Counted from the first letter of the stretch, positions 1 through 56,732 are shown. The stretch: DNA of 64,000 nucleotides from an uncultured Clostridium sp. (GCA_964507565.1 CAZDPV010000002.1:24879-88878), one strand, 5' to 3'. Translations and numbers: made by a program. The notes: generated by a model not told the origin, from the sequence alone.

Positions 1-3000
1 AAAAAAGAAATAAACGGATATGCAGAAATAGAATATGAAGATAATGAAATAGTAAATATCTATAATCAAGAAATAACTTATCAAACAATATCTTCAAAAG
101 CATATTTAGAAATTCCAAATGGAATAAAAATAAATTTATCAAATAAAGTTATTAGTCAAAACGGCGAAAATAAAATGAGTTTAAATAATATGGTAATAGA
201 TTCAGAAGATAATGTTACAATAACTGATTTAGAAGAGCTTCAGAAAAAAGAAAATACGATATCTGAAAATTCAACTAATGAAAACAACACATCTTTAGGA
301 ACAGGAAGTGTTACTCAAGGTCCTACAACAGTAATAAATAACCAAACATCAACTTCTATAACAGCAGGGAATGTAGGAGATTCAAAAACAGACTCAGAAG
401 AAACGGTAGATGAAACTAAAACTGTAATTGCTCCAACATATAAAGTAACAAAATTTGAAACAACATCAACTGGAATAAAAGCAACAATTGCGGTAAATGA
501 TGAAGAATCACTACTAACATCAGATAGCAAAATTAAAGTAATAGATGGTGAAACAGGAAAGTTAGTTTATGAAAATACGGAAAGCTTAGGAGTATATAGC
601 ATAGATGTTGACATATCTACACTTTCTCCAAATACAGAGTACACATTAGAAGTTGAATCAAGCTATACTGTTGATTCAATAAGCTATACAAAGAATTTTG
701 TATACAAGGTATTCAAAACTTTACCCATTGGATTAGGAATTACAAAAGATGTTTATACTTCTGATAGCTTAGGAATAAATGTAGTTTTTGAAAGTGAATC
801 AGATGTTAAAGAAGTAGAGGTTGCACTACTTAACAATAAAGGTGAAACAATAAAAACTCAAAAGGTTTATAATAAAGGTAAGACTGAAAACACAAGCAAC
901 GTGGAATTTACACAATTAGAATCAAATACAGAATACACAGTAGAATTACTTAATGCAATATATAATGGACAAGTTATATCAAATGGCTTCGACATAACTA
1001 AAAATTGCAAAACACTAAAGGAAAAACCACAAATTAGTAATCCTGAATTTGAAATAGACAAAAGAAATGGCAAATTTAACCTGGATTTAAAAAACTCAAT
1101 TGACAAAGATAGTGGAATTCAGGAATATAGATTTGAAGTATATGATACAAGACAATCTGCTGCAAAAACACCAATAATGTCATTATCAACAAATGGAACA
1201 CAAACAAGCTTAAAGGTTGATAACGATAAAATATTTAGAAATGTAGCATATATTTTCAAAGTTATTGCAATATTCAATGATAATGAAAAAATCCATGAAT
1301 ACGAAAGCGAATTTAGTGATATTATGCAATTAGATGGAACTGAATTTCCAACAATATCATTCGAAAAGAAAGAGGTTACGTACGAAAGAATCGAAGGGAC
1401 AATAATAGTTGAAGACAAAGGAAACGCAATCAGCCTAAAAAATGGAAATAAATTTACCGTAATCTATAATGACTCGGTTGGAGGAAAAAATGAGTCATTT
1501 ACATCAGAGGGAAGTCTTAAAATTCCAGTATCAGTAAATAATTTAAGAGCAAACGAGACTTACAAATTTTCAGTATATACAACAGTAGATTTACAAGATG
1601 GCAATGATCCAATTAAAGAATGCTTTATAGGTTCAGTAATTGTAAAAACAGAATTACCTAAAAATCTAGTAGCAAATTTTAAAACTAATAAACAAAATAC
1701 AAAAAGCACTTTTGATGTAACGTTTCAACTAGCAAAGGAAAATCAAAGCCAAACTGATTTAGAATCACAGACTCTTACAGGAGTTACATTTAGTATTTAT
1801 CCAGGACAAACAACTGATGGAAAATTGCCAACTGGAACTCCAAAGCGAACTGTTAAGATTGTGGATAGCGATGTTTCAGCATATTCAAGCGAAATAAAAA
1901 CAAATTATTATGACCAAAGTAAATCAATTAATCCAACGTTTTTTGGGTCACAAAACAATGATTTTAAGGACAAATATTATACACTTGTTGTTTCAAAGGC
2001 TTACGACTATACAGATTATCAAAATGCCTTACCAATAATAAATAATGTTTACACAATTGAAACAAATGGATATATGCCTGACCTACCAGGGGACGTTAAT
2101 GATGCACTGCAAGTCAACGTAATTAGAAACAGAGATTCTAGTTCAATAAGAGAAGAATTGGATGCAAGCACAATTGTGGGATATACCGTAAAAGCAAGTT
2201 ATGATAATTCCGATTACTATGCAAAAAAAATAATATATAAAGCGTATAATGCAATATCAAAAGCTTTAATATCAACTAAAGAAGTGAGCATGGACAAAAC
2301 ATTAGAAATTCCTAGTGTAACATTTGATGTAAAAGATGGAATAGATTCAGCTAGTACTGATGATGAAAATCTAACAAGAGGAAATACTTATTACTTTACT
2401 TATGAAGCAGAACTTGACTTAAATGGCGATGGAGAAGCAGAAACTCATTATCCATATAATAGCAACGGACAAGCAGTAACACTTAAATCAAAAGATGTTA
2501 TTCCAGAAAAGCAAGAGGCAAAAATAGAAATGTTTCCAATAATATCAACAAAAAACACATATTCATTTGGAATTAAAATAATAGATATTGACAAATCAAT
2601 AAATACAAATACAGCTAGTGCAAAGATAGATGATAAATTAGTAGATACAGAAGTATTAGACAAGACATCAAATCAATATGGACAAATAACATTTAAAAAC
2701 CTGTCAAAAGGAAATTTGGAAATATATATAACACAAAAAACAATCAATACTGAAGACTCAAAAAAAATATATTTAATTTATCAATACTTTGAAGGAATAA
2801 AAAGCATTAGTGATATTAAGTTTAAAAAGAGCTTAGAATCAAACAAATTACTTATAACATTGATAGATTCTGGAGAACAAATCAACAATATAATAGCGGT
2901 AAAAGTTACTCTTGAATCAACAGATGGAACGGTAAAAATAGAAAAAGATATGTTAAAACCAACAAATAATATTATAAGCATAAATTTAAATGACATTAGT

Positions 3001-4755
3001 GATTTACTCAATAAAGAAACTAAAGTATCAGTAAAAGCTTACTATGATAGTGGAATAACTGGATATAATTTAGAACAAAATCACTTTGTAACATATCAAA
3101 AACCATATCTGTCTGGGGAAACCGTATACTATTATAAGATAGATGGTAAAAAACAATTTGTTGATACTCCAGATATACTAGGAAATATATATATAAGTAC
3201 AAGAACAGAAAACTCTTTGCAAATAGTTAATGCTATGACAACAAGTTTAACAACAACAATAACACTTGATATTACAAAAAACGGATTCACATATAATGGA
3301 AATGTTATTCTACCAAAACAAGTAAATGAGCAGGAAATCGTTTCAGAGGATGGCGATAACATTATTAAATTCGATGTAATAATAACAGGAATAACTCTAA
3401 AAGATAATAAGGGAAATCTAACAATATCATCAGAGCTAGACAACGTTAGTTTTGAAGCATCTCTTTTAACAAAAGAATCTGTTAAGGATGATTTGATATA
3501 TATAGAGATATATCAAACTGACGAAAATGGAAAAACACAATACTTAACTAATACTATTTCAAAGTTAACAAGTGATTTTAACAGTAAAATTACAATAGAT
3601 GGTTTAAAACCAAAAACATATTATTTTCTTAAATTTAGAGCAAATTTTGACACATCAGATGGTGTTTCATCAAAATACTTATATGATATAGATTACGAGG
3701 TAGAGGGGAAGCAATATTATTTTTCAACGCTTGCAAATGTTGGAATAACAAATATAAGTGTAAAATATAATCCAGTTGATTATGATAACAAAACAATTGA
3801 CATAACATACAACCTTGATAAAATAATGGGATATAAGAAGATAGCATATAAGATAGAAAAATATAATGAAGTTACAAAATTATATGAAGAAACAGGAATA
3901 AAAATATCAAACGATGTACTATTTAAAAATGAAATGACTAAAAAAATAGTATGCAACCCAACTGGAGCAGATACAAAAATTATATTCGGAAAAAAATACA
4001 AAATTATAATTGCACCATTAACAGAATATACATATAATGGAACTACTACAACCTTAGATCTAGGCACAAAAGAATATGAATTTGAGCTTCAAGAACTTTC
4101 TAATCCAATTATTGCTTTAAAAGGTTCAAGATCGGGAGAAAGTAGTGCATATTTTAAAGTAACAATATATGATAATGATAAAATAATAGTTGGTGGAAAT
4201 TATTCTGTACAGATTTTTGAAAATGGTTCTATAGATATTACACCAGAGGAGTACGTAAATCAAAAATATTCAATAAATACATTTAATAAAACATTCTCTA
4301 TCTCAAACGTTAATAAAACAAGTAAATATAAAATACTAATAAAATGCAAAATAGATAAAAAGAACAATGGAAATGAAATAACAGACTTTGAAAAAAGTTA
4401 TGAATTACCATCTGTAAATGAATATGGAATTTCAGTAGGAAACGTTTCAACAGCAACAAACTTGAATGGTGGAATTTATAAAATTGATTTAATTTTTAAT
4501 AGTTCATACAAACTAAACGAAATAGACATGGTGAAATATTCAATTTATAATGTAAGCGGATATTCGCAAAGTAATGAGGAAAACTTTATACCAACTGAAA
4601 TAAATTCAGAAGATGGTGGTTTATACTATAAATTTACATTAAATAATAATATGAATGATTGTGATCAGGGAACTTATTATATTGAATTACAATTTTATAA
4701 AGATGGAAATTTAGTTGACGAAACAACAGTTGAACATGTTTATTTAAAAGAATAA
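1..4755 (+). CDS. Giant surface/secreted protein built from tandem FN3/Ig-like beta-sandwich modules (5' end lies outside the window)
   Basis: Frame 1 is open from nt 1, with no stop before the ATG at 175 used by the ORF track, so the gene is truncated by the window edge. It has at least 11 modules of about 90-110 aa, each with an FN3-like strand signature (SPNTEYTLEVES, ESNTEYTVELLN, RANETYKFSVYT, KPKTYYFLKFRA, KTSKYKILIKC). There is no C-terminal TM or LPXTG. The stop is TAA at 4753-4755. Confidence 0.8.
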   Translation, partial: KKEINGYAEIEYEDNEIVNIYNQEITYQTISSKAYLEIPNGIKINLSNKVISQNGENKMSLNNMVIDSEDNVTITDLEELQKKENTISENSTNENNTSLGTGSVTQGPTTVINNQTSTSITAGNVGDSKTDSEETVDETKTVIAPTYKVTKFETTSTGIKATIAVNDEESLLTSDSKIKVIDGETGKLVYENTESLGVYSIDVDISTLSPNTEYTLEVESSYTVDSISYTKNFVYKVFKTLPIGLGITKDVYTSDSLGINVVFESESDVKEVEVALLNNKGETIKTQKVYNKGKTENTSNVEFTQLESNTEYTVELLNAIYNGQVISNGFDITKNCKTLKEKPQISNPEFEIDKRNGKFNLDLKNSIDKDSGIQEYRFEVYDTRQSAAKTPIMSLSTNGTQTSLKVDNDKIFRNVAYIFKVIAIFNDNEKIHEYESEFSDIMQLDGTEFPTISFEKKEVTYERIEGTIIVEDKGNAISLKNGNKFTVIYNDSVGGKNESFTSEGSLKIPVSVNNLRANETYKFSVYTTVDLQDGNDPIKECFIGSVIVKTELPKNLVANFKTNKQNTKSTFDVTFQLAKENQSQTDLESQTLTGVTFSIYPGQTTDGKLPTGTPKRTVKIVDSDVSAYSSEIKTNYYDQSKSINPTFFGSQNNDFKDKYYTLVVSKAYDYTDYQNALPIINNVYTIETNGYMPDLPGDVNDALQVNVIRNRDSSSIREELDASTIVGYTVKASYDNSDYYAKKIIYKAYNAISKALISTKEVSMDKTLEIPSVTFDVKDGIDSASTDDENLTRGNTYYFTYEAELDLNGDGEAETHYPYNSNGQAVTLKSKDVIPEKQEAKIEMFPIISTKNTYSFGIKIIDIDKSINTNTASAKIDDKLVDTEVLDKTSNQYGQITFKNLSKGNLEIYITQKTINTEDSKKIYLIYQYFEGIKSISDIKFKKSLESNKLLITLIDSGEQINNIIAVKVTLESTDGTVKIEKDMLKPTNNIISINLNDISDLLNKETKVSVKAYYDSGITGYNLEQNHFVTYQKPYLSGETVYYYKIDGKKQFVDTPDILGNIYISTRTENSLQIVNAMTTSLTTTITLDITKNGFTYNGNVILPKQVNEQEIVSEDGDNIIKFDVIITGITLKDNKGNLTISSELDNVSFEASLLTKESVKDDLIYIEIYQTDENGKTQYLTNTISKLTSDFNSKITIDGLKPKTYYFLKFRANFDTSDGVSSKYLYDIDYEVEGKQYYFSTLANVGITNISVKYNPVDYDNKTIDITYNLDKIMGYKKIAYKIEKYNEVTKLYEETGIKISNDVLFKNEMTKKIVCNPTGADTKIIFGKKYKIIIAPLTEYTYNGTTTTLDLGTKEYEFELQELSNPIIALKGSRSGESSAYFKVTIYDNDKIIVGGNYSVQIFENGSIDITPEEYVNQKYSINTFNKTFSISNVNKTSKYKILIKCKIDKKNNGNEITDFEKSYELPSVNEYGISVGNVSTATNLNGGIYKIDLIFNSSYKLNEIDMVKYSIYNVSGYSQSNEENFIPTEINSEDGGLYYKFTLNNNMNDCDQGTYYIELQFYKDGNLVDETTVEHVYLKE

Positions 4756-4775: not shown

Positions 4776-6445
<1,670 letters not shown>

Positions 6446-6492
6446 ATAGATAAAATATAAAAAGTCTAATGCTATTTTACAGGAGAAAAAAT

Positions 6493-7320
6493 ATGATAAA
6501 ACTAATTATACCAGCAATAATAATGGAATTCTTAATGTTTGGATTTTCTATATATATTTTTGATAATCTCTCAAAAAGGATAAATAACAGAGTAAAAAAA
6601 TATTTTATAGACAAACTTCAAGATTATAATTATTTAATTGAAGAAAAAGCTAAAGAGCTTGAAAATTTGAGAAATTTGGTAGATAATGAAAATAATAAAA
6701 TAAAAAAACTTCAAGAAACGCCAGAAAGCACATTCTCAAAAACTATAGAGAGCAAGTTAAAGAAAATGAAGAAATTTAAAGAGGGAAAAATCAAACTAGT
6801 AGAAGAAGAAGATATAATTTATGATATACCAACTCCTGCATATAGGGAAGAGTCATTCTTTAAAAATTATAAAGAGCTAAAAAAGAACTTTAACGTGGAT
6901 ACACAAAATGTATTAGAGAAATTTGTTAAGGAACATAAGAATACAAAACAAGAAGATGAAGCATATAAAATTCTTACAGAATTCAGGTCTAAATTTAATC
7001 AAAATACAATTTATGATTGTTTAACATTAAATTCTAATAATCAATACAATTTAATGAAAGAAGTAATGTCCTCAAAAGAAAAAAACACAATTAACTTTGA
7101 GGAAAAATTTATGCAGGACAAGAAATTTACAATATTAAAATTATTAAATTATGTTGACGAGCTGATAAAAAAATACGATCCAACAATATATGTATATGTC
7201 GGATCAGACAGTGTTGATTATAATTATATTGAAAAGAACATCAAGACATATTTTTATAAAAACATGTCCGAAGGAATAATTATAAACTATAAAGGAAAAA
7301 TGTATGACTATAGTATATAG
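6493..7320 (+). CDS. Peripheral-stalk-like protein: b-subunit-like N-terminal TM plus coiled coil, with a delta/OSCP-like C-terminal end (candidate b-delta fusion)
   Basis: I prefer the ATG at 6493, 7 nt after AGGAG (6481-6485); the ORF track starts at 6469 in the same frame. It has one N-terminal TM (IIPAIIMEFLMFGFSIYIF) followed by a long K/E-rich helix. The C-terminus EGIIINYKGKMYDYSI resembles by eye the OSCP/delta C-terminal pattern (GG-x-x-[VI]-x-x-G-x-x-[IV]-x-D-x-S). It occupies the atpF/atpH position between c and alpha. Confidence 0.55.
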   Translation: MIKLIIPAIIMEFLMFGFSIYIFDNLSKRINNRVKKYFIDKLQDYNYLIEEKAKELENLRNLVDNENNKIKKLQETPESTFSKTIESKLKKMKKFKEGKIKLVEEEDIIYDIPTPAYREESFFKNYKELKKNFNVDTQNVLEKFVKEHKNTKQEDEAYKILTEFRSKFNQNTIYDCLTLNSNNQYNLMKEVMSSKEKNTINFEEKFMQDKKFTILKLLNYVDELIKKYDPTIYVYVGSDSVDYNYIEKNIKTYFYKNMSEGIIINYKGKMYDYSI

Positions 7321-7346: not shown

Positions 7347-8685
7347 ATGGGTACACATATTGAGGATTTATTAAATAAAAAAATAGAGCAAATTAAGACA
7401 GAAGAAAATGTTTTTGATTCTGGAAATGTTACAAAAATAAAAGACTATATAATTGAAGTTTCCGGATTGGAAAACGTTAGGTTTTTTGAAAAAGTAATAA
7501 TCCAAGGTAAGGGAATGGGATATGTAAATCAAATAAATGAAAATTCCGTAATAATTGCATTGGTAAAGCAATATGCCCCAATCCAAATTGGAGATATTGT
7601 AAATTCAACAGGAGAATTATTTAAAGCAATATTTGCAAAAGAAGCAATGGGAAGAATAACAGATTTATTTGGCGTCGATTTATTAACAGGAAGAGCTTTT
7701 GAAAACTTTGAATATATAAATATAGAAAACAAAACTACTCCAATAATGGACAGGCGAGAAGTAAACAGACCTCTTAAAACTGGAATATCAGGAATAGACT
7801 TAATATACCCAATAGGAAAAGGACAAAGACAGTTAATAATAGGCGATAAAAAAACTGGAAAAACGCAAATAGCTCTTGACATAATTGCAAATCAAGCAAA
7901 TGTAAGGCGAGAACAAGGAGACAATATAGTTTGCATATACATAGCGGTAGGAAAAACAAAAAAAGAGATTAAGAATATTTATAATGAACTACTTAGAAGA
8001 AATGCATTATCATATACAATGATTTGTGCTGCAACTAATGATGATAAGCCACCTGTATTAAGTCTTATTCCTTATGTAGGATTATCTATTGCAGAAGAAT
8101 ATATGAAAATGAAAAAGGATGTAATTGTAATAATAGATGATTTAAAAAAACATGCACAAGCATATAGAGAGATTAGCTTAATATCGAATAAAACACCAGG
8201 AAGAGACGCATATCCATCTGATATTTTCTATACGCATGCTCGTTTGTTAGAGAAAGGTTGCCAATATAAAGACGGAGGTTCAATTACAATTTTACCTATA
8301 ATGGAAACAAAAGGTGGAGATATAACAGATTATATATCAACCAATATTATTTCAATAACTGATGGACAGCTTGTATTATCAGAAAAAAACTTTAGCGCAG
8401 GATTTAAACCGGCAATTGACTATGGAGTATCAGTATCTAGATTAGGTGGAGCAGTTCAAGAGGAAAGTGTAAAGAAATTAGGAGCAACAGTAAGAAGAAA
8501 ATTCTTAAGCTACTTGGAAATGAAAGAAGTATATGAGCTTGCGAATATGGATGAAATGAGTCCAGAATTAAGACAAAAAATGAAAGAAGGAGAAGCTATA
8601 CAAGAAGCATTAAAACAAGATAAATTTTCTCCTCTGTCAAATGCGGAAATAATTGATAAATTTAATATGTTAGGTGAGGATGCAA

Positions 8686-8696
<11 letters not shown>
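7347..8696 (+). CDS. atpA: F1 ATPase alpha-subunit-like protein (449 aa, short C-terminal domain)
   Basis: Contains RPLKTGISGIDLIYPIGKGQRQLIIGDKKTGKT (alpha Walker A, GD-x-x-TGKT). Also has ITILPIMETKGGDITDYISTNIISITDGQ and FKPAIDYGVSVSRLGG, the region containing the alpha arginine finger. The N-terminal beta-barrel is present. It is about 50 aa shorter than typical alpha subunits of about 500 aa. Confidence 0.9.
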
Positions 8697-10828
<2,132 letters not shown>

Positions 10829-10865: not shown

Positions 10866-11159
<294 letters not shown>

Positions 11160-11174
11160 AAGAGGAGAGAATTT

Positions 11175-11744
11175 ATGATACAAACAATAATGTATAATGT
11201 TAGTAAAAGTGCAATTCCAATGTTAATATACTTAGGAATAATAGTATTTACTGGATTCCTCATAAATTTCTCAACAAAAAAATTTGATATTCATAAAAAA
11301 ACAGTTATGTTTGGAGGAATGTTAGTTAAACTTCATAGAAGGCAAATAATCTCAATAACTGCAGTTATGATAAGAACATTTCTAATAATATATGCATCTA
11401 TAAACTTTAAAGAAAATTTGGTATTGTACTTTACGATGATTATTATGGCAGATATAGTTTATATTTTTATGAATCCCAAAAAAATAGTATTTGAAATTAT
11501 AAATACTTCTGCACAGGGAATTTTAATATATATAATAAGTCTACTAAGCACATATCGAGTTGAAATTAGTGATGAACTATACGTAAAACTAATGCAAACA
11601 TTGCTTATTATTTTTATAATTGTGTATGCAATATACTTTTTATTTAAAAATTTTGAAGAAATAATATCAAAAAAATATAAAATAACAAAAAGAGAGAAAA
11701 AAGACCAAGAATTGAAGGGAGAATTAAATGAAAAAAATAGCTAA
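11175..11744 (+). CDS. Polytopic (about 5 TM) membrane protein of unknown family; speculative minimal stator or a-subunit substitute
   Basis: GAGGAG RBS. Hydrophobic segments include AIPMLIYLGIIVFTGFLINF, IISITAVMIRTFLIIYASI, LVLYFTMIIMADIVYIFM, AQGILIYIISLLSTY and LMQTLLIIFIIVYAIYFLF. There is a buried Arg in TM2 and an Asp in TM3. IRTFLIIYAS loosely resembles the a-subunit LRLFGNMYAG helix. The C-terminal tail is K/E-rich. Confidence 0.6.
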   Translation: MIQTIMYNVSKSAIPMLIYLGIIVFTGFLINFSTKKFDIHKKTVMFGGMLVKLHRRQIISITAVMIRTFLIIYASINFKENLVLYFTMIIMADIVYIFMNPKKIVFEIINTSAQGILIYIISLLSTYRVEISDELYVKLMQTLLIIFIIVYAIYFLFKNFEEIISKKYKITKREKKDQELKGELNEKNS

Positions 11745-12459
11745 TAAAACATCACAAAATGCTTTAATAAAAGATATTGTCATAAAAATAGTATTAGTAT
11801 TATTACTTCTAGATGTAATATTTATTGCAATATACTATATCAAACAGCTAAATACAACAGAAGTAGAAAATCATAGCTTCTATCAATACTTAGGTGGTCA
11901 AAAGCAAAGTTATGCAGGAAGTATTAAAATAAGCAAAAACGGTGATATAACAGAATTAAAATGTAACGATATTGAAATCGAATTAGACTCAACACCAGTG
12001 TATTATTCAGATATAGAAAATACCGCAATATTACCAGAACAAATGTCAATTATTTATCCAAAAGAAAATGGAAAAACATATAGAACAACAAGATTCTCTA
12101 TATGCTCAATAAAAGACAAATCTGTGTATATTGAAATGAGTAAAAGCGAAAAATTAGTGCAAAATGCAATTCTATATGATGGAGATAATTTGTATTTTTT
12201 TATAGAGCAAACAAAGCTAATGATTGGTAATAAAGAGTATGATATTTCACCATTATCTTATGTATATGCAAAATACAATGAATATGTAGAAATTTATGAT
12301 AAGAAAAGTGATACATTTCAAGTGGTAGAATGTGCAAAAAAGAATGTAACAGCAAGCAATGGCTCATATATAATAGACTTAAACACAGGCAGTTTAAAAA
12401 ATGGAGAAAAAGAACAGCTATTACTTAAAAAGTTTAATTCATTAGAAATTTTAAAATAG
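11728..12459 (+). CDS. Single-pass membrane protein, unknown function
   Basis: ATG follows AAGGGAG and overlaps the previous gene by 17 nt. The N-terminal TM is IVIKIVLVLLLLDVIFIAIYYI, followed by an extracytoplasmic domain of about 200 aa. Confidence 0.6.
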   Translation: MKKIANKTSQNALIKDIVIKIVLVLLLLDVIFIAIYYIKQLNTTEVENHSFYQYLGGQKQSYAGSIKISKNGDITELKCNDIEIELDSTPVYYSDIENTAILPEQMSIIYPKENGKTYRTTRFSICSIKDKSVYIEMSKSEKLVQNAILYDGDNLYFFIEQTKLMIGNKEYDISPLSYVYAKYNEYVEIYDKKSDTFQVVECAKKNVTASNGSYIIDLNTGSLKNGEKEQLLLKKFNSLEILK

Positions 12460-12505: not shown

Positions 12506-15500
12506 ATGAATAAAAATGAAATAAAAGATAAACCAAAATTACATAAAAAAGGTAAAATAGCAAATCTAATAAGAAGCAATATACCAATGTTTCTAATAGT
12601 ATCAATTGGGCTACTAATAATATTATTAGTGGCACTTTATTATATATTTATGCACTTTGCTCCAGTATATGTAATCGAAAAAAGTGGATATGCAGTAAAG
12701 GATAAATTAATATATCAAGGATTACAGACATCAAATTTTAGTAGTGCAGAAAAACGAGTTAGCCTATTAGAAATTTCAGAAGAAGATACTCTATACAAAA
12801 AAATAAACAGTTATTATATTGGTGGAAATAGTAAAAAAGCTATAAACTTAAATTATCCAATATATTTAGAAGATTCAGCAATGCTAAATTTAAGTAAAGA
12901 AATGAATTTGATCACAAATTCTTTTGAAGAGGTAGGAGGATATCCAAATTTTACAATAATAGATGGAAAGATGTATAATGAAAAAGATTTAACAAGAGCA
13001 GATAGCAATGAATACATATTTCTTAAAAATAAAGAGAATTTGTTTGTAAATATTAAAGAAATATATATAAAGACTTCTACAAATGAATATAAAATACCAA
13101 TAAATAGTATTATAAATTTTAACAAAGAATTTGTTAGTTATTATAAATTACAAGACAAAGATAACTTAGAATATAGTGTAATACAAGATATAGACTTAAG
13201 TAGTATAATTACAATAAATAATGAAAGTGATAATTATGAAAATATATTAAAGAAACTTAAAATTATACAAGAAGAAAAGAAACAGGATGTAATTGTAAAT
13301 GAAATAGAAGAACCTGTTAAAAATGAAACACCCAAAAATGAAATAACGGAAAATAAAGAAGAAGAAAAAACGGACGATGAAGAAAAAAAATATATTGCTC
13401 CAGAAGTAAAATGTACAGACTTTACTGCAAATGTTTATACTGCAAAGACGAATTTATATATAAGTGACCCAAGCGGAACGATTCAAAAAGCAGTAGAATT
13501 TACAATATACAAAGATGGTAAGGTATATCAAAGAGCTCAAACTTTAGTAGGAGGAAACATTTTAATAAGTGGACTAATGCCAGATTCAAAATATTCAATA
13601 ACAGGAGAGTACACATACAAAAAAGAATCAGGAGAAAAAGTAATAAAAACATTTTATGAAGGTACGTTTAATACCAATAGATTAGAAACACTAGAAACTA
13701 TAAATTTGGAATTTGAGAATGGAGAAATATTTCCAACAAAGATTGAAATAAAAGATTTAAAAATAAATAATGATTTATATAATGACGAAGTTTTATATGG
13801 AATATCAAAAATAGTATTGGATACAGGAAAATCTAAATATAATTTAAGAGCTTCACAAATAAAAGAACTACTAAATGGAAATAAAATAACATATCAAACC
13901 GACCAAAATATAACAAGTAATAGTAATATAAAATATAAATTCCATATATATGATAAATTTGAAAATGAATTATCAGTCTCAAATAGTGAAGGGGAAACTA
14001 TAACTTCAAAAAGAGCTCCAACTTTAGTATTAAATGCAAAAAGTCAAAATATAACAGAAGTAAATGTAGGAATTAAAGTTAATAACAAGGATAACGTTAT
14101 AATAGAAAACTATAAATATGCTATATACGATGGGGAAGGGAAAGAAGTAGAAAGCCAAAACTTAAAATCATTACCAAGCGAAATTAAGATAAGAGATCTA
14201 GACCCTAATAAATTCTATGTAATAAAAATATTTGGAGATTATGATTTGGAAAACAATCAGGGAAAAACATATAATGTTGAACTGGGGGAAGCAAAATTTA
14301 CGACGTTACCAATATCTTCACTAGGATATGTATACATTGATGATAACTTAAAAGATATAAAAAGTAACCAAACAACAATTTCTATAAAAATAAATACTGA
14401 AAAAACTGATACTAGATTGGTAGAAATATTATCACAATTTAATATAAAAATAAAATCAAACAAAGATAATAAAGATACTCAAGACTATAACTTATCAAAC
14501 GAAGACCTTCTCAAAATAAAGCAGGGAAATGAATTTGAATACATATTCCAAAATCTAAATTCTAACACTAAATATTCTATTGAAGTAGAAACGAGGGCAA
14601 AACAAGGAGCTTCAACGGAAAAAGTAGGTGTAAATTTCGAGATAACGGACTTTATTACACTTAAGGAATCTGCTAGTGTACAAATTAAAAATCAATTTGT
14701 TACAGGAGAAATAATAGATTTTGATGCAAAAATAGTAGATAAAGATGAAGCTGTTTTAAATAATTCTGTACGTATGGAATTAAGGGACGAAATGGATAAG
14801 CTACTATCAATAGAAGATATGAAAACAAATGAAGAATATAAAAGAGAGACATTCAATAAATTGAGTAGTGGAAAAACATATAAAATATTATTTTACGCTG
14901 ATGAGTATAATGAGGGAAGTAAAGATGATACATACAAATCAAACTATCTTCTTAAAAAAATACAAGTTGTTACTGAGGAGGGGATAAGTGGAAATTTAAG
15001 ACTAAGTGAACTTAATAAAAAAGAAAACGGAAAAAATCTAATTGATATGGCTTCAGAAGTAAAATGGTATGTATATCCAAATTTTGACACAGGAGACTGG
15101 TATGGAAAAGAGTATAATGAAGTAACAGAAACATTGTCAATTGGAGGACATGGAAACAGTAGAAGATGTGTATATGACTTAACAGATTATTCAGGACAAA
15201 CTGTAACGATGTCTTTTAAGGCAAAGCGTATTACTAAGAACTCAAGCACTCTATATATTCAAAATGCAAGAACAGATAAAAATAGAACAATAGTTAGTGA
15301 CATAAATGAAACAGAATGGAAAAGTTATTCATATACCATAAAACTTGATGAAAGTGGATACCTTGGCTTTTATGTACAAGGTGGTGATGGAGTTCAAATA
15401 AAAGAATTACAGGTTGAACTGGGATCTAAGCAAACTCCATATCAAAAATATAAATATAATATGAGAACTAGATTACAAGTAAATTTAATTGACAAAAGAA

Positions 15501-18500
15501 ATGAAATAGAGTCGAACGAATATTTCATAAAAGAATATAAAAACAATGAGCTTATTGAAACTAAAAACTTTCAAGAAATAGATGAGAGCAACATAGTAAA
15601 AGATGTAATAAAAGAATTTTGGGTAGATGAAGAAGGAGAATACAAGTTTCAGTTAGTAATAAAGATAAGAAACAGAGAATATATACTAGATACACAAGAA
15701 ATTAAAACTGAAAAAGGAAAAGAAATAAAAGGAATTTATCAATATTCGGATTTTAAGTTGATCCAGCCAAATGGGAACTATACAGTATTTTGTGATTTAG
15801 ATTTTACAGTAGAAAGTAAACAATCATGTTCTTTTGGATATACATGGGACGAAAGATTTTCTTTTAATGGAAGCATAGATTTTAACGGACACAAAATTAT
15901 AAAAGATGCGTATGGAAATAATAGAAGTTGGCCTATATTCCCTAGAATAGGAAAAAACGGATATCTAAAAAATATAGTTATGGATGTAAGCCTAAGAAAT
16001 AATGTAGAAGTAAGAGAATTCTATGGATTATTTTATGTAAACTCTGGAACAATAGAAAATCTAGAAGTTAATTTATTAGAAAGTACAAAATATGGAAATA
16101 TACAAACTCATCTAATAGGTTTAACAAACTATGGAACAATAAATAAATTTGTTATAAATTCAAAGGTACCATACTATGGAAATTGTAGAGTAACACTGGG
16201 ATTGTATAACAATTATGGGACAATTAAAAATGGATACTTATATGGCAGTCCAATTGATGTATTTGGAGATATACCAGAAGAAATTGGATATAGATATGCA
16301 GCTGGACTGGTATTACAATCATATGGAAGTGGACAAATATCAAATGTTTATAGTTTAATAAATGTTAATGTGGAAGACCAAACTACTACTGGAAGAGAAA
16401 ATGTATCTAATATAGTAGAACATAATTACGCACACATAGATAATATTTACTCAGTAGGAACCGGAAATACAATTGAAATGTCACATGGACCATCAGTTGC
16501 ATATAATAATGGAAAAATAAATAATAACTATTACTTTGCAGATAAAGTATTTAATAACTCATATAATAATAAAACTACCAAACTTGCATTATTAGATGAA
16601 CAATTTCAAAATCAAATACTAAATAGTGAAGATGCATTTAATATAGATGATCTTATTTCAAGAGGATATTATCCACAAGTTGTTATGCCAGATTGTATGC
16701 CACGACAGGAATATATCAACCTACCTAAAGTAGATGATGCAGACTTACCAGATATAATTTCAACTAACATAATACAACAAGGCTCAGATACGGTAAAAGT
16801 TAGATTTAGTATAAATAATCCATCTGGAGAAAAAATTCAAAACATAAGTGTACAAAACCTACAAGTAAGAATAGAATCACAAAATTATGCAGATGGAAAA
16901 AGTGAAGTAATAGCAACACTACTAGAACCTACAAAGTATGTATCAACATATAATGTTCTAAGTATAACTACAAAAGGTGCATTCAATATACCATATACTA
17001 GAAAATATGCAAGCAATGAAAGAATAATAAATGTGGATTTATATAGGCAGATAAATTCTATATCAGATTGGAACAATATATCAAACCATACAGATGAAAA
17101 CTTTATGCTACTAACAGATTTAGATTTTAAAAATGAAGGAAGTTCTATATCAATAACTAAAACCTATTATGGAAAATTAGAAGGACAGGGTCACACCATT
17201 AAAAATATAAAGTCAAATAGAGGACTTCTTGCAACATTTACTGGACAAATAAATAATTTATTTATTGAAAATTATTATAATGAATCAGCATCAACAGACT
17301 ATACTGGAGTAATAGAATATTTAAATGGCGGAATAGTAAATAATGTACACATTAAAGGATTAGAGATAGACGTAAATCAAAAAAGAATAGGTGGAACAAT
17401 TACGTGTGGAGGCCTTGTTGGATATACTAATAGTGGCTCAGTAATAAAAAACAGCTCAATTGTAGATGCAACTATTATATCAAATGCAAAACTAGATAAT
17501 GCAAGATTTGGCGGATTAGTAGGATTATCAGACCAACTAGTAATAGATAACTGTTTTGCACAAAATGTAGATATTTCAGCTAATAAAAGTATTTATTATG
17601 AAGGAGTAGGAGGACTAATAGGAAGAGGAACTCCTTGTTACATAACTAATTGCTACTCGACAGGTAAAATTTTTTCAGATGGAGATAGATGTGGAGGAAT
17701 TATCGGAAACAGTAATACAAGCGGAACCCTAACAAATTGCTATAGCTTAGTAAATGTAGATAGTTATGGAGAATATATAGGAGGAATTATTGGATATAAT
17801 CTTACACCAACTTCATGCTTATCTATTGGAAATATTTATACTAGACAAGATACAAAAAACATATCTAGAACATCTGGATATCAAATAAGTAAAAAGATAA
17901 ACTATGCTTATGAGAATCAACTAATAAATGGATATATAAATGAAAATGAATTAGATTCAAATGTACTAAGTAGAGACGAAATATTTAAAAAATCCAATTA
18001 TTTAAGTGAGCTTAAATGGGATGATAATTACAATTATGATGGATTATCTAATTATATACTTCCAAAACTATATTACACAGATAAAAAAGAACTACTACCT
18101 AATCAAGAAGATAATACAATTTCAATAGACAGAGAAATAAAAGTAGAAGAGGTTCAAGCAGAGAAAACAGACGTTAATACTGTTGGTGTAAGAGTTGTAG
18201 TAAATAATCCAGGAAACAAACAAATTAAAAATGTAATAATTGATGACATGAATTCAATAATCTCAAAATCAATTTTTGATAATGGAAAAACTTATATAGA
18301 CTTAGTAACAACGCCTAAAAGATATTATGACAGCTATAAAATCTCAAGCATTGTATATGATGACAATGGAGAAGAAAAATCAAAAGAAACAGAAAATAGA
18401 ATTGATGTTAAATTTTATAAAGAAATATATAACTACAATGACTGGCAATCAATAGAAAAAGATACATTTCAAAATTATAAACTTATGAATGACATTGACT

Positions 18501-21500
18501 TTGAAGGAAAAAGTGAAGTAAATTATAATGTTACAATGGCTAGATTCGAAGCGGTAGGTGATAATAAAACATTAAAAAATATTACATTAGCAGAAATTGA
18601 GCAACAATCTGGACTAATAAACAAAATTTCCATAAATTTAGAAAATATAAATTTCGAAAATATTAACATTACATCTACTAAGTCTGGAAATGCAGTAGGA
18701 ATAATTAGAAAAGCAAGTGGAAATGTAACAAACATCAATTTTAAAGACATAACAATAACCGCAAAAAAAGTTTCTTATGTGGGATGCTTTGCTGTGGTAG
18801 ATTCCGTAACGAAAGATGTTGGACTAGAACACATTACATGCTATGGAATACACTACGTTGGTGGATATGCAGGTTCTGTCTCGAATTTAGGAAAAAATAT
18901 AAATGGAAACAACATCACGATTATTTCAACAGGAAATTATGTCGGTGGAATAGTTGGACTAAATGGTAATGGAATAGAGCCAAATCATTATAACATAAAT
19001 ATAAGTAATTCAAATGTTACAGGATATGATGTTGTTGGTGGACTTGCTGGACAATCTCCTAATATAATGGGTGCGAAAGCTACTTTTGTAACAGTAAATG
19101 GACATAGCAATGTTGGAGGAATGTATGGATATATATATGACTCTTGGGATGGATATAGCAATATTGTAACGGATTCAAATATAGCAGGTTCAGGTTCAAA
19201 TATTGGTGGATTAGCAGGACAATCAACAGACTGGTGGGGAGGAATTAGAACTGTTAAAAACAGTACTGTTACGGGTAAAAATTCAGGATCAAACAACGTG
19301 GGAGGAATCTTTGGATACTCAACAGGAGCATGTAATGCTATGAATACAATAGATGTAACTGTTACAACATTAGGAAGCAATGTAGGTGGAATTATAGGAA
19401 ACTGGAATAGATCGAATTCAACATCTGGATACTGGAGTACAGATAATGTAACGCTAACAGGATATTCAAATGTAGGAGGTTTGGTTGGTTATCATAAAGC
19501 AGGAAGAATAAATTATGCATATAGTAATGCAAAAGTAACAGCAACAGGGTATGCAGCAGGAGGAATATCTGGATATTTGGCCAATACTGGAATGACAGCA
19601 ATAACAAATGATACAGCAATAGTACAAGTTTATGTAGCTAAATCTACTGTAATTGCTCCAATAAATGCAGGAGGAATATTTGGAAAAGTTGAAACAGACT
19701 TTTATATGCCAGTATCTTTATATACTAAAATATTTGTAGAAGCCAACGTAAAATCAAATTATGACACGACATCTTCAATGATTGTGGGTTCAGACAAGAC
19801 AATGAATAGTCAATTATCAAAAATATACATCTACCAATACAGCAAGATAAATGAAAATTACATTACAAAATATAACGACAATATAGAAGCAAATAATTTC
19901 TTAAATGAAAGTAATTTAAAGCTAGCAAAAACATATTCTTCAACACTAGGATTTAATACAGGGGTATTTAATACGAATATGTTATCAAGTAATATTTATC
20001 CAACAATAAAATATGGTAGAGATGGAAATACAATGGAGCAAAGAGGAATTTCATTGCCAATGGATCCAGTAGACGTAGTTATAAATTTAGAAGAAATACA
20101 AACAATGGATTTGAAAGAAGATGAATATCCACTTATGGTAGCATCTAATTTCTTAATTAACTTAAATACTGAAAACGACCAAAAAGTGAATAACTTACCA
20201 ACGTATAGTGCATATCCAATAAGTGTAAATGAGTTTAATATAGATTTTAGTAAAATAGACGAAAATGCTTTCTTTGAATGCTATGTAAATGGTAGAAGTG
20301 CTGTAAAACAATATATAAAAAATAAAACATATACATTTAAATATGACTTTAAAACTAATATTGAAATCAATATAGGAAAAGATGATGTGGTAAAAACATT
20401 AACAATTATACCAAGTGATATAAATAAACGAACAAGTTTAAAGGGAGAAAGCATTGCATATATAAATGAAAATAAATTATATGTAAATAATGAGGAAAAA
20501 AGTGAACAATCTGTAAACTTATATGATTCCCAAGCTTTAACGAACAATGGAAAGATATACAACATATTAACTGGTGAGTATACAAATAGCAATGAAAAAA
20601 CAAATACTACAAGCATAGATGAAGAGAGCCAAAACAATAATGTTCAAAACACATTAGCATTAGAAGAAACTAAAGCGTTAGAAAAATACCAATATGATGG
20701 AAATAATATTGAAAGCTTTGGAACGTACAGCATAGTAAATGGCAATAGAAAGTCACAAATTTATATAGTAAAAAACAACAAGTTATCAGTGATAGATAGC
20801 TCATTAGATATCAAAATTTCAAACCAAGTAATTGATTTCTACAATGGAAAAGAATATCAATCAGTACTAAAAAAAGATGGAAAGATAAACAATTTAAAAG
20901 AAAGTCTAAAATATCCTAAAAATTTTAATAATAGTACAATAAAAGAAATAACAATGAATCAAGAAGAAGAAAGAAAAGAAGTAATGGTACTATATGAAAA
21001 CGGAAAGGTCATAGTATTCAATTACATGGATGGAAATGAAAAATACAATAATAATGTGAAAGAAGAAGTAAGTTTATTAGACTTTTTAAAAGAAAATTTG
21101 TTTAATGCAAATATGATATATGAAGACTTATCAGAAGAATATGAACAATGCAAACAAGTACAAGAAAAGCTAGAAGAAACTCCAATAAGTGAGCTAAACA
21201 TAAATTCGAGTTCAAATAATAGTTCATCTAATGCAACATCAAGTGGATCAAACAATAATAAAACAAATAAATACACTACAATGTACAATGCAACAAGCAA
21301 AAAATATGAAGTATATAATGAAAATGAACTATTAACAAGCAAAGAAGAGGTACCAGAATCAGAAACTACTAAGATTGAAAAAACAGAATTATTATCTAAA
21401 TATTATCTAAGTGGAATAAAAGAAAAATCAAATTCTAATAAAAATAATGGTACGGTTTGGATAATATCAACAATAATTGGAATTTTAATAATTCTCATAA

Positions 21501-21562
21501 TATTATACAAAGTAAACAACAGAAAAAGAATAGCAATTAAAAAAAATACAAATAAAAAATAA
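12506..21562 (+). CDS. Giant (3018 aa) envelope protein with TM helices at both termini, FN3-like repeats, a CBM-like jelly-roll and GLUG-motif beta-helix arrays
   Basis: CAGGAG RBS. N-terminal TM (IPMFLIVSIGLLIILLVALYYIF, about nt 12584-12652). FN3-like signatures include MPDSKYSITGEY, LDPNKFYVIKIFGDY, LNSNTKYSIEVETRA and SSGKTYKILFYA. A CBM-like segment spans about 15060-15450. F-x-G-x-(L/F)-x-G-x-G-H-x-I-x-N modules are present (FNGSIDFNGHKIIKD, YYGKLEGQGHTIKNI). About 10 consecutive x-V-G-G-(L/I)-x-G repeats span about 18850-19690. An S/N-rich linker precedes the C-terminal TM VWIISTIIGILIILIILY (21455-21508), which is followed by a basic tail. There is no LPXTG and no HEXXH. Confidence 0.85.
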   Translation: MNKNEIKDKPKLHKKGKIANLIRSNIPMFLIVSIGLLIILLVALYYIFMHFAPVYVIEKSGYAVKDKLIYQGLQTSNFSSAEKRVSLLEISEEDTLYKKINSYYIGGNSKKAINLNYPIYLEDSAMLNLSKEMNLITNSFEEVGGYPNFTIIDGKMYNEKDLTRADSNEYIFLKNKENLFVNIKEIYIKTSTNEYKIPINSIINFNKEFVSYYKLQDKDNLEYSVIQDIDLSSIITINNESDNYENILKKLKIIQEEKKQDVIVNEIEEPVKNETPKNEITENKEEEKTDDEEKKYIAPEVKCTDFTANVYTAKTNLYISDPSGTIQKAVEFTIYKDGKVYQRAQTLVGGNILISGLMPDSKYSITGEYTYKKESGEKVIKTFYEGTFNTNRLETLETINLEFENGEIFPTKIEIKDLKINNDLYNDEVLYGISKIVLDTGKSKYNLRASQIKELLNGNKITYQTDQNITSNSNIKYKFHIYDKFENELSVSNSEGETITSKRAPTLVLNAKSQNITEVNVGIKVNNKDNVIIENYKYAIYDGEGKEVESQNLKSLPSEIKIRDLDPNKFYVIKIFGDYDLENNQGKTYNVELGEAKFTTLPISSLGYVYIDDNLKDIKSNQTTISIKINTEKTDTRLVEILSQFNIKIKSNKDNKDTQDYNLSNEDLLKIKQGNEFEYIFQNLNSNTKYSIEVETRAKQGASTEKVGVNFEITDFITLKESASVQIKNQFVTGEIIDFDAKIVDKDEAVLNNSVRMELRDEMDKLLSIEDMKTNEEYKRETFNKLSSGKTYKILFYADEYNEGSKDDTYKSNYLLKKIQVVTEEGISGNLRLSELNKKENGKNLIDMASEVKWYVYPNFDTGDWYGKEYNEVTETLSIGGHGNSRRCVYDLTDYSGQTVTMSFKAKRITKNSSTLYIQNARTDKNRTIVSDINETEWKSYSYTIKLDESGYLGFYVQGGDGVQIKELQVELGSKQTPYQKYKYNMRTRLQVNLIDKRNEIESNEYFIKEYKNNELIETKNFQEIDESNIVKDVIKEFWVDEEGEYKFQLVIKIRNREYILDTQEIKTEKGKEIKGIYQYSDFKLIQPNGNYTVFCDLDFTVESKQSCSFGYTWDERFSFNGSIDFNGHKIIKDAYGNNRSWPIFPRIGKNGYLKNIVMDVSLRNNVEVREFYGLFYVNSGTIENLEVNLLESTKYGNIQTHLIGLTNYGTINKFVINSKVPYYGNCRVTLGLYNNYGTIKNGYLYGSPIDVFGDIPEEIGYRYAAGLVLQSYGSGQISNVYSLINVNVEDQTTTGRENVSNIVEHNYAHIDNIYSVGTGNTIEMSHGPSVAYNNGKINNNYYFADKVFNNSYNNKTTKLALLDEQFQNQILNSEDAFNIDDLISRGYYPQVVMPDCMPRQEYINLPKVDDADLPDIISTNIIQQGSDTVKVRFSINNPSGEKIQNISVQNLQVRIESQNYADGKSEVIATLLEPTKYVSTYNVLSITTKGAFNIPYTRKYASNERIINVDLYRQINSISDWNNISNHTDENFMLLTDLDFKNEGSSISITKTYYGKLEGQGHTIKNIKSNRGLLATFTGQINNLFIENYYNESASTDYTGVIEYLNGGIVNNVHIKGLEIDVNQKRIGGTITCGGLVGYTNSGSVIKNSSIVDATIISNAKLDNARFGGLVGLSDQLVIDNCFAQNVDISANKSIYYEGVGGLIGRGTPCYITNCYSTGKIFSDGDRCGGIIGNSNTSGTLTNCYSLVNVDSYGEYIGGIIGYNLTPTSCLSIGNIYTRQDTKNISRTSGYQISKKINYAYENQLINGYINENELDSNVLSRDEIFKKSNYLSELKWDDNYNYDGLSNYILPKLYYTDKKELLPNQEDNTISIDREIKVEEVQAEKTDVNTVGVRVVVNNPGNKQIKNVIIDDMNSIISKSIFDNGKTYIDLVTTPKRYYDSYKISSIVYDDNGEEKSKETENRIDVKFYKEIYNYNDWQSIEKDTFQNYKLMNDIDFEGKSEVNYNVTMARFEAVGDNKTLKNITLAEIEQQSGLINKISINLENINFENINITSTKSGNAVGIIRKASGNVTNINFKDITITAKKVSYVGCFAVVDSVTKDVGLEHITCYGIHYVGGYAGSVSNLGKNINGNNITIISTGNYVGGIVGLNGNGIEPNHYNINISNSNVTGYDVVGGLAGQSPNIMGAKATFVTVNGHSNVGGMYGYIYDSWDGYSNIVTDSNIAGSGSNIGGLAGQSTDWWGGIRTVKNSTVTGKNSGSNNVGGIFGYSTGACNAMNTIDVTVTTLGSNVGGIIGNWNRSNSTSGYWSTDNVTLTGYSNVGGLVGYHKAGRINYAYSNAKVTATGYAAGGISGYLANTGMTAITNDTAIVQVYVAKSTVIAPINAGGIFGKVETDFYMPVSLYTKIFVEANVKSNYDTTSSMIVGSDKTMNSQLSKIYIYQYSKINENYITKYNDNIEANNFLNESNLKLAKTYSSTLGFNTGVFNTNMLSSNIYPTIKYGRDGNTMEQRGISLPMDPVDVVINLEEIQTMDLKEDEYPLMVASNFLINLNTENDQKVNNLPTYSAYPISVNEFNIDFSKIDENAFFECYVNGRSAVKQYIKNKTYTFKYDFKTNIEINIGKDDVVKTLTIIPSDINKRTSLKGESIAYINENKLYVNNEEKSEQSVNLYDSQALTNNGKIYNILTGEYTNSNEKTNTTSIDEESQNNNVQNTLALEETKALEKYQYDGNNIESFGTYSIVNGNRKSQIYIVKNNKLSVIDSSLDIKISNQVIDFYNGKEYQSVLKKDGKINNLKESLKYPKNFNNSTIKEITMNQEEERKEVMVLYENGKVIVFNYMDGNEKYNNNVKEEVSLLDFLKENLFNANMIYEDLSEEYEQCKQVQEKLEETPISELNINSSSNNSSSNATSSGSNNNKTNKYTTMYNATSKKYEVYNENELLTSKEEVPESETTKIEKTELLSKYYLSGIKEKSNSNKNNGTVWIISTIIGILIILIILYKVNNRKRIAIKKNTNKK

Positions 21563-23931: not shown

Positions 23932-25134
23932 ATGGAAACAACGGAAATAAATAAATTAGGAAAAGAACTAGAGCTATATAAAACAGTAGATTATATTGGA
24001 AAGGGATTCCCAATAATTTTGCCCAGAGGAGCTAAAATACTAAAAATAATTAAAGATTATGTTGAACAAGAAGAAGAAAAAGAAGGGTATAAAATTGTAC
24101 AAACTCCTAGCGTCTCAAATGCAGAAATATATATAATAGAAGACAGATTTGAAAATGAAAAAGATGAAATGTTTATAATAAAAAATAATGAATCAGATAA
24201 TGATTGCGATGAAAAGTCAACAAACCAAATAGTATTAAGACCATATGTACAACCGTTTCATTGTAGTATTTATAAATCAAAACAATATAGTTATAAAGAA
24301 TTACCAGTAAAGTTTAGTGAAACATCAACAGTATTTAGAAATGAAAGAGATATAAAAGGAATAACTAGAACAAGGCAGATAACTATGTCTGATGCAAGTA
24401 TATATTCTACACCTGAAAAAATAGAAAAAACTATTAGAGAAGCAATTATGATGCAACAAAGATTTATAAAGAAGCTAAATTTAGATGTAGAATATGTAAT
24501 AGAAACATGGAATGATACAAAAAAAGAAGAATATATTGGAAATATTGAAGAATGGGACTTTCTTACAGAAAGTATGAAATCTGCGTTAAATAGCTTAAAT
24601 ATAGAATATAAAGAAAAAGAAAATGCAAAAATGTATGGACCAACAATAAAAATATTATATAATAAAAAATACTTTTCAAGCTTACAAATTGACTTTGAAA
24701 TTACCCATAGATTTAATTTAAAATATATTAGCGAAAATAATGAGGAAAAATTCCCAGTATATATGCACTTAACATTTGTTGGAAGTTATGAAAATATGCT
24801 TGGCATTCTCTTAGAAAAATACAAGGGTACTTTTCCACTGTGGTTATCACCAACGCAAATTATGATAATAGACGAAGGTGAAGAATTTGATGACTATGCT
24901 GATAATCTGAAAAATGAATTTATAAAAAATGGATTAAGAGCAGAAACAGACAATTCAAGTAATAGCAGTCAAAACAAAATAGGAAAAGCGGTAGACTTTA
25001 AAATACCATATATAGTAACTATTGGAAAGAAAGAATTAAACCAAAATACAATAAAAATTCACGGAGTAGATAAACCATACAAAATAGAAGAATTTATAGA
25101 GGAGGTTCTAAATTGCAACAAGATTCAAAAGTAA
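23932..25134 (+). CDS. Truncated, degenerate ThrRS paralogue (class II core plus anticodon-binding domain only)
   Basis: 400 aa, collinear with thrS residues about 242-641. Conserved blocks include FPIILPRGAKI, LRPYVQPFHCSIY, FRNERDIKGITRTRQ and GTFPLWLSPTQI. The N-terminal TGS and editing domains are absent, and several catalytic and zinc positions are substituted (see finding). Confidence 0.8.
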   Translation: METTEINKLGKELELYKTVDYIGKGFPIILPRGAKILKIIKDYVEQEEEKEGYKIVQTPSVSNAEIYIIEDRFENEKDEMFIIKNNESDNDCDEKSTNQIVLRPYVQPFHCSIYKSKQYSYKELPVKFSETSTVFRNERDIKGITRTRQITMSDASIYSTPEKIEKTIREAIMMQQRFIKKLNLDVEYVIETWNDTKKEEYIGNIEEWDFLTESMKSALNSLNIEYKEKENAKMYGPTIKILYNKKYFSSLQIDFEITHRFNLKYISENNEEKFPVYMHLTFVGSYENMLGILLEKYKGTFPLWLSPTQIMIIDEGEEFDDYADNLKNEFIKNGLRAETDNSSNSSQNKIGKAVDFKIPYIVTIGKKELNQNTIKIHGVDKPYKIEEFIEEVLNCNKIQK

Positions 25135-50874: not shown

Positions 50875-50980
50875 CAAAAAAATGAAATTAAGGAGGCACA
50901 GTATGTTATTTTTGATGATATAAAATATCAACTAAAATAAAAGCCATATACTTGTGCCTTATTTAATGGAAAGGGGTAAG

Positions 50981-56699: not shown

Positions 56700-56732
56700 A
56701 TATAATAGATAATAGATTGGTTGGAGGAAAAA

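Follow-up and report, generated by a model that had tools for sequence, protein, structure and literature searches.

To our knowledge, mycobacteria are known to have fusions of the b and delta subunits, and mycoplasmas alone are known to have F1-like ATPases that serve a non-bioenergetic role. We describe here a gene cluster that recalls both, found in a 64,000-nucleotide (nt) stretch of chromosomal DNA from an uncultured Clostridium sp. (GCA_964507565.1, CAZDPV010000002.1:24879-88878), to which we refer as the window. Between the genes for a c-like subunit and for alpha lies a single gene, hereafter the stalk gene. Its 275-amino-acid (aa) product is probably the sole protein of the peripheral stalk in a divergent F-type ATPase, with a C-terminal domain homologous to delta/OSCP.

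The nearest architectural precedent is the mycobacterial b-delta fusion subunit (AtpH, about 445 aa; 7jg5_d and 7njk_d; bioRxiv 10.1101/2020.08.06.225375). The polarity of the fusion is the same, a b-type anchor standing at the N-terminus and a delta-type domain at the C-terminus of one chain. The mycobacterial subunit exceeds the window protein by ~170 aa and includes a long helical b part as well as an additional linker domain, whereas the window protein has a short, variable linker and, unlike its mycobacterial counterpart, a trimmed delta domain. The mycobacterial protein also pairs with b', subunit a and a carboxylate-bearing c in a proton-translocating enzyme, whereas b', a and the carboxylate are all missing from the window cluster. 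Nothing suggests that the two fusion events share a common descent.

The F1-like X0 systems of Mycoplasma (Type 2, gliding; Type 3, MIB-MIP) drive gliding or MIB-MIP antibody cleavage (Beven 2012, PMC3369863; PMC11864180; PMC12994834). As in the window cluster, divergent alpha, beta, gamma and epsilon-like proteins are encoded there in a seven-gene core that lies beside surface-protein genes, in reduced-genome relatives within the Firmicutes, and the role is likely non-bioenergetic. In contrast to the window cluster, which has all three, the Mycoplasma clusters contain no c-like gene and no transmembrane (TM)-anchored stalk, and their alphas are devoid of the N-terminal helix. The Mycoplasma X0 proteins (12-TM and 87-kDa) are unrelated, and the window cluster retains far more F1Fo parts.

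The stalk gene and its delta-like domain

An open reading frame (ORF) spans positions 6469-7320 on the forward strand, and the true start of the stalk gene is the ATG at 6493, which is preceded by AGGAG at a distance of 6 nt. Database protein P0001 (275 aa) is 100% identical to the product. The initial annotation of this DNA had placed a single gene between c and alpha, where atpF and atpH normally lie, and this was borne out, with gaps of 47 nt after the c-like gene and 26 nt before alpha. Canonical AtpF (PF00430) and AtpH (PF00213) occupy the same slot and present the same N-out TM helix followed by a charged helix. Unlike in the canonical pair, the two functions would be combined in one chain; this chain has no profile similarity to b, and no b dimer partner is encoded.

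Structure prediction with AlphaFold2 (AF2) indicated a compact C-terminal domain at residues 119-275 (about 160 residues), made of about seven helices and four strands. A model of residues 112-275, computed from an alignment of family members only and with no templates, reached a predicted local distance difference test (pLDDT) of 88 and a predicted template modelling score (pTM) of 0.75. When this model was compared by Foldseek with a library of 350,542 PDB chains, ranks 1-33 were all occupied by delta/OSCP chains and unrelated proteins appeared from rank 34. The best probability was 0.98 and the best E 0.0097, with alignments of 140-170 columns. The matches came from chloroplast, E. coli, Pseudomonas, Acinetobacter, Bacillus PS3 and several mitochondria, and included the mycobacterial b-delta. 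TM-scores to these chains were low (0.35-0.44), for which a hinge between the two sub-domains of delta is one possible reason. The arrangement of the domain is that of delta/OSCP, a helical bundle of ~105 residues being followed by a small beta-containing C-terminal domain.

Sequence comparison pointed to the same family. The stalk protein ends in ...NMSEGIIINYKGKMYDYSI, the most conserved stretch of its family, which the initial annotation had likened by eye to the terminal strand of delta/OSCP. We aligned a wide family profile (208 sequences from an exhaustive representative search) with a delta alignment using hhalign. Residues 247-275 (EKNIKTYFYKNMSEGIIINYKGKMYDYSI) paired with delta positions 137-165 with a score of 35.3, a P of 3.4e-5 and a probability of 72%. 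None of 80 column-shuffled delta profiles reached this score (maximum 14.7), and the reversed profile scored 16.0. The hhalign match and its shuffled controls therefore indicated that the motif seen by eye is real. With a narrow family profile of 29 sequences only the terminal hairpin was recovered, at a probability of 6.9% and a P of 0.005. The delta alignment is itself narrow: it consists of three proteobacterial deltas taken from PDB alignments and of real proteins from Bacillaceae, which were retrieved with the AtpH sequence of B. subtilis (99% identical to P0101) as the query. Under relaxed settings, the alignment with this narrow profile was collinear over the domain (query 8-164, template 3-165) with low per-column confidence, and it paired PTIYVYV with the first delta strand, AIVYSV.

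Residues 247-275 carry the signature of the delta C-terminal hairpin (..LIGG-V/I-x-V/I-x-I-G-x-x-I/V-Y/I-D-G-S-V). The domain as a whole resembles canonical AtpH in having a helical bundle and a C-terminal sheet with a G-[VI]-x-[VI]-x-x-G-x-x-[IY]-D-x-S-[VI] hairpin. It differs from canonical delta at the elements that clasp b: a loop replaces the helix between strands 1 and 2, and the terminal helices are absent, the chain stopping at the hairpin. The chain end coincides exactly with the hairpin end in 145/205 family members and lies within 7 residues of it in the others. In canonical enzymes the C-terminal domain of delta holds the end of b, and the covalent fusion would make the helices that do so dispensable. 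As modelled, the domain is a trimmed delta, with the length, the order of elements and the fold of delta; all of the fold evidence comes from predicted models.

Anchor, linker and rival readings of the stalk protein

The N-terminal half is b-like in architecture only, that is in its topology and its charged helix. The protein has a single hydrophobic segment (residues 1-24) followed by KRINNRVKK, in line with the positive-inside rule, and this TM helix, which the initial annotation had reported, is present in 205/221 full-length family members. AF2 predicted a helix over residues 2-74 with pLDDT values of 82-93, and the charged part shows a conserved pattern in the family alignment (K-R-I-N...Y-F-I-x-K-L-Q-E-Y-N-Y-L-I-x-E-K-E). 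The charged fraction of residues 26-118 is 0.42. The long charged helix claimed at first as typical of b was thus recovered as far as residue 74. The likeness to b did not extend further: homology to AtpF was not found, the continuous helix of >100 residues seen in b is replaced by one predicted to stop at residue 74, and residues 75-118 form a variable linker. Neither ATP-synt_B nor AtpF matched the window protein in Pfam or NCBIfam, and neither was among the 25 most-matched families of 54 family members. According to the models, the chain continues beyond residue 74 as a variable and partly disordered linker and not as a long rigid coiled coil. The stretch ahead of the delta-like domain measures 83-215 aa across the family (median 104).

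Members of very different size are found in the family: the length of the linker varies about three-fold, as in P0232 (357 aa) and P0358 (369 aa) versus P0236 (242 aa), and in the long members it consists of low-complexity sequence rich in Ser, Asn and Gly. Some database entries of 162-211 aa have no TM part and may be fragments or split genes.

Several findings weigh against the assignment of this protein as a delta-type stalk. Neither half was recognised by any curated profile. OSCP (PF00213) and AtpH gave no match to the window protein at E up to 1 in Pfam or 0.1 in NCBIfam. Nor did they appear among the 25 most-matched families listed when 54 family members were scanned with E up to 10, and a PDB sequence-profile search at E up to 10 returned coiled-coil noise only, with no delta or b chain. 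The confident hhalign segment is 29 columns long. When the N-terminal half was aligned by hhalign with the b subunits of E. coli and B. subtilis, P was 0.15, no better than the reversed control, and AtpF homology of this half was rejected. The linker after residue 74 is poorly predicted as well as length-variable. Finally, in the shortest members ~59 residues lead from the TM helix to the domain, a span of ~90 Å if helical; in canonical F1Fo the distance between membrane and crown is greater. The stalk is therefore not a classical rigid rod in all members; in the shortest ones either the chain would be partly extended or F1 would sit lower.

These properties of the linker bear on the strongest of the rival readings, in which the domain is genuinely derived from delta and the protein is no torque-bearing stator. 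It would instead be a flexible tether, an assembly or positioning factor, or a bridge, comparable to GliD, that joins F1 heads to one another or to the surface-protein machinery. The linker is variable, partly disordered and sometimes of low complexity, some members carrying low-complexity inserts; the cluster encodes no second b-like chain with which a coiled coil or dimeric rod could form; and the ring has no carboxylate (see below), so that classical Fo torque is absent. GliD of Mycoplasma mobile, hypothesised to derive from a b-delta fusion, bridges F1-like dimers in the twin motor of that organism (PMC11864180). Unlike GliD, which has no TM segment, the stalk protein has a TM anchor in nearly the whole family, and GliD was absent from both the Foldseek and the PDB-sequence matches of the stalk protein. 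A slack tether, once taut, would still stop continuous co-rotation of the head.

The alpha subunit argues in the same direction. Its N-terminus is extended by 20-25 residues, which align with the helix that binds delta in canonical alphas, and this extension is kept in all loci. NCBIfam alpha models match the window alpha from model position 6. A helix equivalent to H1 is thus available for docking, as with canonical AtpF and AtpH. In the Mycoplasma Type 2 and Type 3 clusters, where a peripheral stalk is missing, alpha has lost the helix (PMC11864180; PMC12994834). Its retention in the window alpha makes a tether to the F1 head plausible, the C-terminal domain presumably binding to the alpha N-terminal helices. 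On balance we regard a delta-derived protein without a stator role as unlikely. The stalk protein would work like a tether and may act as a rigid stator.

In another reading, the likeness to delta is convergent or generic, arising from a small helical bundle and a hairpin in a lineage-specific membrane protein that, for example, handles surface proteins. We hold this to be very unlikely, given 33 consecutive delta/OSCP top matches with no other family before rank 34, a motif whose position agrees with that in delta, in a domain that is collinear with delta and equal to it in length, a gene in the exact slot of atpH and an alpha that keeps the partner helix.

The initial annotation had further stated that no separate delta gene is present. 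A search with a delta hidden Markov model (HMM; --max) against six-frame ORFs of the window and of 79 related loci, viewed over 10 kb on each side of the stalk gene, gave nothing significant for canonical delta, in agreement with this statement. The weak top matches were mostly the stalk ORFs themselves. Pfam scans of the remaining genes of the window returned housekeeping genes only and no separate delta. That a canonical b and delta encoded elsewhere in the genome serve this F1, with the 275-aa protein as an accessory subunit, is the most improbable reading of all: although the view covers 64 kb of this genome and 10 kb on either side in relatives, no delta lies near any of the 79 loci, the cluster forms a self-contained set whose synteny holds in metagenome-assembled genomes (MAGs) of both the Clostridia type and the Bacilli type, and a housekeeping delta would need to fit a divergent alpha, which scores 430 bits against a cutoff of 554 in NCBIfam. 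A single-chain peripheral stalk with a delta-derived domain is the reading that we retain.

Membrane part, F1 subunits and gene neighbourhood

The c-like protein aligns well with Na+-type c, with an alanine opposite the ion-binding Glu of A. woodii c2 (4bem_A). An acidic residue in TM helix 2 was found in 0/56 orthologues, and the RNPE loop and a C-terminal FYNPL are almost invariant among them. No gene for subunit a was found in the cluster. Canonical F1Fo combines a carboxylate-bearing c with an a subunit that has an essential Arg; as the cluster has neither, it is not read as a normal F1Fo. The rotor/stator architecture inferred at first was supported, a tether being plausible and the alpha helix being kept, with the qualification that it is not that of a normal F1Fo. 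The system is not a normal ATP synthase and seems unable to transport ions; because the c-like ring has no carboxylate and the cluster no a subunit, the whole complex is probably an ATP-hydrolysing motor and not an ion-coupled synthase.

The only polytopic protein of the cluster besides c is a 189-aa protein, m189, which is found in nearly all loci, has no Pfam or NCBIfam match and shows no conserved Arg. With no Arg conserved, m189 was rejected as a functional equivalent of a divergent subunit a. Its role may be to stand in for subunit a in the membrane, as a partner of both stalk and ring.

F1 itself looks competent from its translated genes, alpha, beta and gamma being present with catalytic motifs. 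Beta has a P-loop, the catalytic GERxxEG and a DELSEED-like motif, and passes the atpD cutoff. Alpha carries GDKKTGKT and the SVSR arginine (SVSRLGG), both read from the translation. It matches canonical models to ~436 of 503-507 positions, so that its C-terminal helical domain is short of approximately 65 residues at the end, and its length across the family is 446-482 aa. The 97-aa protein encoded after beta has no Pfam match, and hhalign against two epsilon sequences found the expected region at a P of 0.15; its identity as epsilon was thus not established. If it is epsilon, it would consist of the beta-sandwich domain alone, without the C-terminal helices.

The genes between positions 175 and 21562 form a single co-directional string of closely spaced genes (Table 1), in the order giant protein, 468-aa protein, c-like, stalk, alpha, gamma, beta, 97-aa epsilon-like protein, m189, 243-aa protein and 3018-aa protein. 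The gaps between them are short or the genes overlap, which is consistent with an operon. Among the members of the string, c, alpha, gamma and beta are the only ones recognised by Pfam and NCBIfam. The ATPase core is bracketed by the two giant proteins and by the two single-pass N-in/C-out proteins, an arrangement that is syntenic in ~45 Clostridia-type loci. These neighbours of the core are membrane proteins whose extracellular portions are large.

Table 1 Features of the stalk gene and its cluster, with positions counted from the first nucleotide of the window
Feature	Position	Strand	Evidence
Giant surface protein upstream, 1754 aa in the full contig, start cut by the window	175..4755	+	ORF, loci
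468-aa single-pass (N-in/C-out) protein, co-conserved with the cluster	4776..6182	+	Locus comparison, topology
c-like subunit (82 aa) with the RNPE loop and with Ala in place of the carboxylate	6197..6445	+	Pfam ATP-synt_C 4.8e-8
Shine-Dalgarno AGGAG	6482..6486	+	Serves the start at 6493
Stalk gene ('b-delta-like'), 275 aa and stop	6493..7320	+	ORF, database gene model, family
N-terminal TM helix, residues 1-24, N-out/C-in	6493..6564	+	Kyte-Doolittle scan; KRINNRVKK after the helix
Charged cytoplasmic helix, residues 25-74	6565..6714	+	AF2 helix 2-74; family conservation
Variable low-confidence linker, residues 75-118	6715..6846	+	pLDDT 49-72; gap-rich alignment region
Helical bundle of the delta/OSCP-like domain, residues 119-228	6847..7176	+	AF2 domain model, pLDDT 88; Foldseek alignments
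Four-strand C-terminal part, residues 229-275, no helix after the last hairpin	7177..7317	+	AF2 model, relaxed hhalign
Delta-type terminal strand-hairpin, residues 247-275	7231..7317	+	hhalign and shuffles
Alpha, 449 aa, C-terminal domain shortened	7347..8696	+	Pfam, NCBIfam
Alpha N-terminal helix region, residues 3-24, expected docking site for the delta-like domain	7353..7418	+	Alignment, NCBIfam
Gamma, 267 aa	8674..9477	+	Pfam ATP-synt 1.3e-27
Beta, 452 aa, DELSEQD present	9470..10828	+	TIGR01039 476.9 bits, above cutoff
Epsilon-like protein, 97 aa, identity by position only	10866..11159	+	Conserved in the cluster
m189, 189-aa membrane protein, 4-5 TM segments, possible stalk partner	11175..11744	+	Topology, locus comparison
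243-aa single-pass (N-in/C-out) protein, co-conserved with the cluster	11728..12459	+	Locus comparison, topology
Giant surface protein, 3018 aa, GLUG and fn3-like repeats, TM anchors at both ends	12506..21562	+	ORF, Pfam, topology

The stalk family comprised >100 proteins in a first search and 323 clusters at 50% identity; public databases list its members without names. When species-representative genomes were scanned, 76 loci were obtained. Every one belongs to an uncultured gut MAG, the labels being Clostridia, Clostridium sp. CAG:354 or CAG:302, Bacilli, "Tenericutes", Candidatus Merdicola or Candidatus Faecimonas. The stalk gene adjoins alpha in every locus that has both genes, and the c-like gene precedes it wherever the upstream side was covered. 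This held for both gene orders, the Clostridia-type order (big1-p468-c-stalk-alpha-gamma-beta-eps-m189-p243-big2) and the Bacilli-type order (c-stalk-alpha-beta-eps-m189-gamma), which contain the same seven core genes.

The Bacilli-type order was seen in loci L045-L079 (for example L049, L056, L061 and L065), which are labelled Bacilli, Tenericutes or Erysipelotrichaceae and whose stalk proteins are 25-31% identical to that of the window. The ORFs upstream of these clusters encode roughly 220-300 aa and 370-950 aa. Two such ORFs upstream of c in L061 match p468 and p243, and in L049, L056 and L065 the ORFs at this place are similar in size and unmatched. Full-text searches of the literature yielded no account of clusters of this kind except in mycoplasmas.

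The GC content of the window is low, about 27%. SpoIVA, a class A penicillin-binding protein with PASTA domains, FtsEX-PcsB, IF2, NusA and tRNA synthetases are encoded in it, and the host is a walled, spore-forming Firmicute. A tandem pair of PcsB-like genes (49675-50874 and 50954-52189, forward strand), each with a coiled coil and an M23 peptidase domain, directly follows FtsE/FtsX and looks like an ordinary cell-division module in duplicate. Three further forward-strand ORFs, at 25113-27311 (732 aa), 39302-40144 (280 aa) and 56721-57920 (399 aa), had no Pfam match at E up to 0.01.

A possible tethered-head motor

If the stalk protein is what we propose, its TM helix would anchor it in the membrane, the charged helix and the variable linker would run up the side of F1, and the delta-like domain would cap the head at the alpha N-terminal helices. 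One chain would thereby do the job of AtpF and AtpH, holding alpha3beta3 to the membrane, and gamma, the epsilon-like protein and the c-like ring would turn against the held head. In the membrane, the ion-blind ring would turn against m189 and the stalk anchor. We infer both the stoichiometry of the stalk and the bearing of torque by its linker. The output of the motor would be delivered to the co-encoded membrane and surface proteins, to which the work probably goes.

The Mycoplasma F1-like X0 systems are conceptually alike to such a tethered-head motor. Membership of the window cluster in the Type 2 or Type 3 families was rejected, since alpha and beta fell below the NCBIfam cutoffs of these families: the scores on the MSC_0619/0618 and MMOB1660/1670 models were 302 and 412 bits, and 380 and 387 bits, for cutoffs of 520, 570, 600 and 850. 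Both subunits scored higher on the canonical AtpA and AtpD models than on the Mycoplasma models. FliH/YscL of type III secretion ATPase complexes offers another comparison; FliH is part of an export apparatus, where its partner is a homohexameric ATPase, and it is devoid of a TM helix, and no sequence signal for it was seen in the window stalk.

Going further, uncultured Clostridia and RF39-like Bacilli of the gut may possess, in this operon, a class of rotary ATPase that derives from the F-type and has not been described before, a proposal that we put forward tentatively and that is clearly less secure than the identity of the stalk protein. Such a class would combine a catalytically intact F1 with a delta-like tether that is TM-anchored and made of one chain, with a c-ring blind to ions and with a novel 4-5-TM partner in the place of a. 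It would use ATP-driven rotation not for ion transport but for mechanical work on the single-pass and giant surface proteins encoded beside it (their movement, extension, shedding or export) and stand as an intermediate between F1Fo and the Mycoplasma F1-like X0 systems.

The fused and trimmed stalk defines a widespread protein family of uncultured gut Firmicutes, and a practical gain is that the stalk gene can be given an annotation. The operon keeps the rotor ring and the contact to the stator, and all that ion coupling requires is gone from it. Should the stalk really hold F1 above a ring that is blind to ions, this would be a natural F-type motor rewired from making ATP or pumping ions, in walled spore-formers. 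If true, it would provide a testable route from F1Fo to the gliding and antibody-cleavage motors of Mycoplasma.

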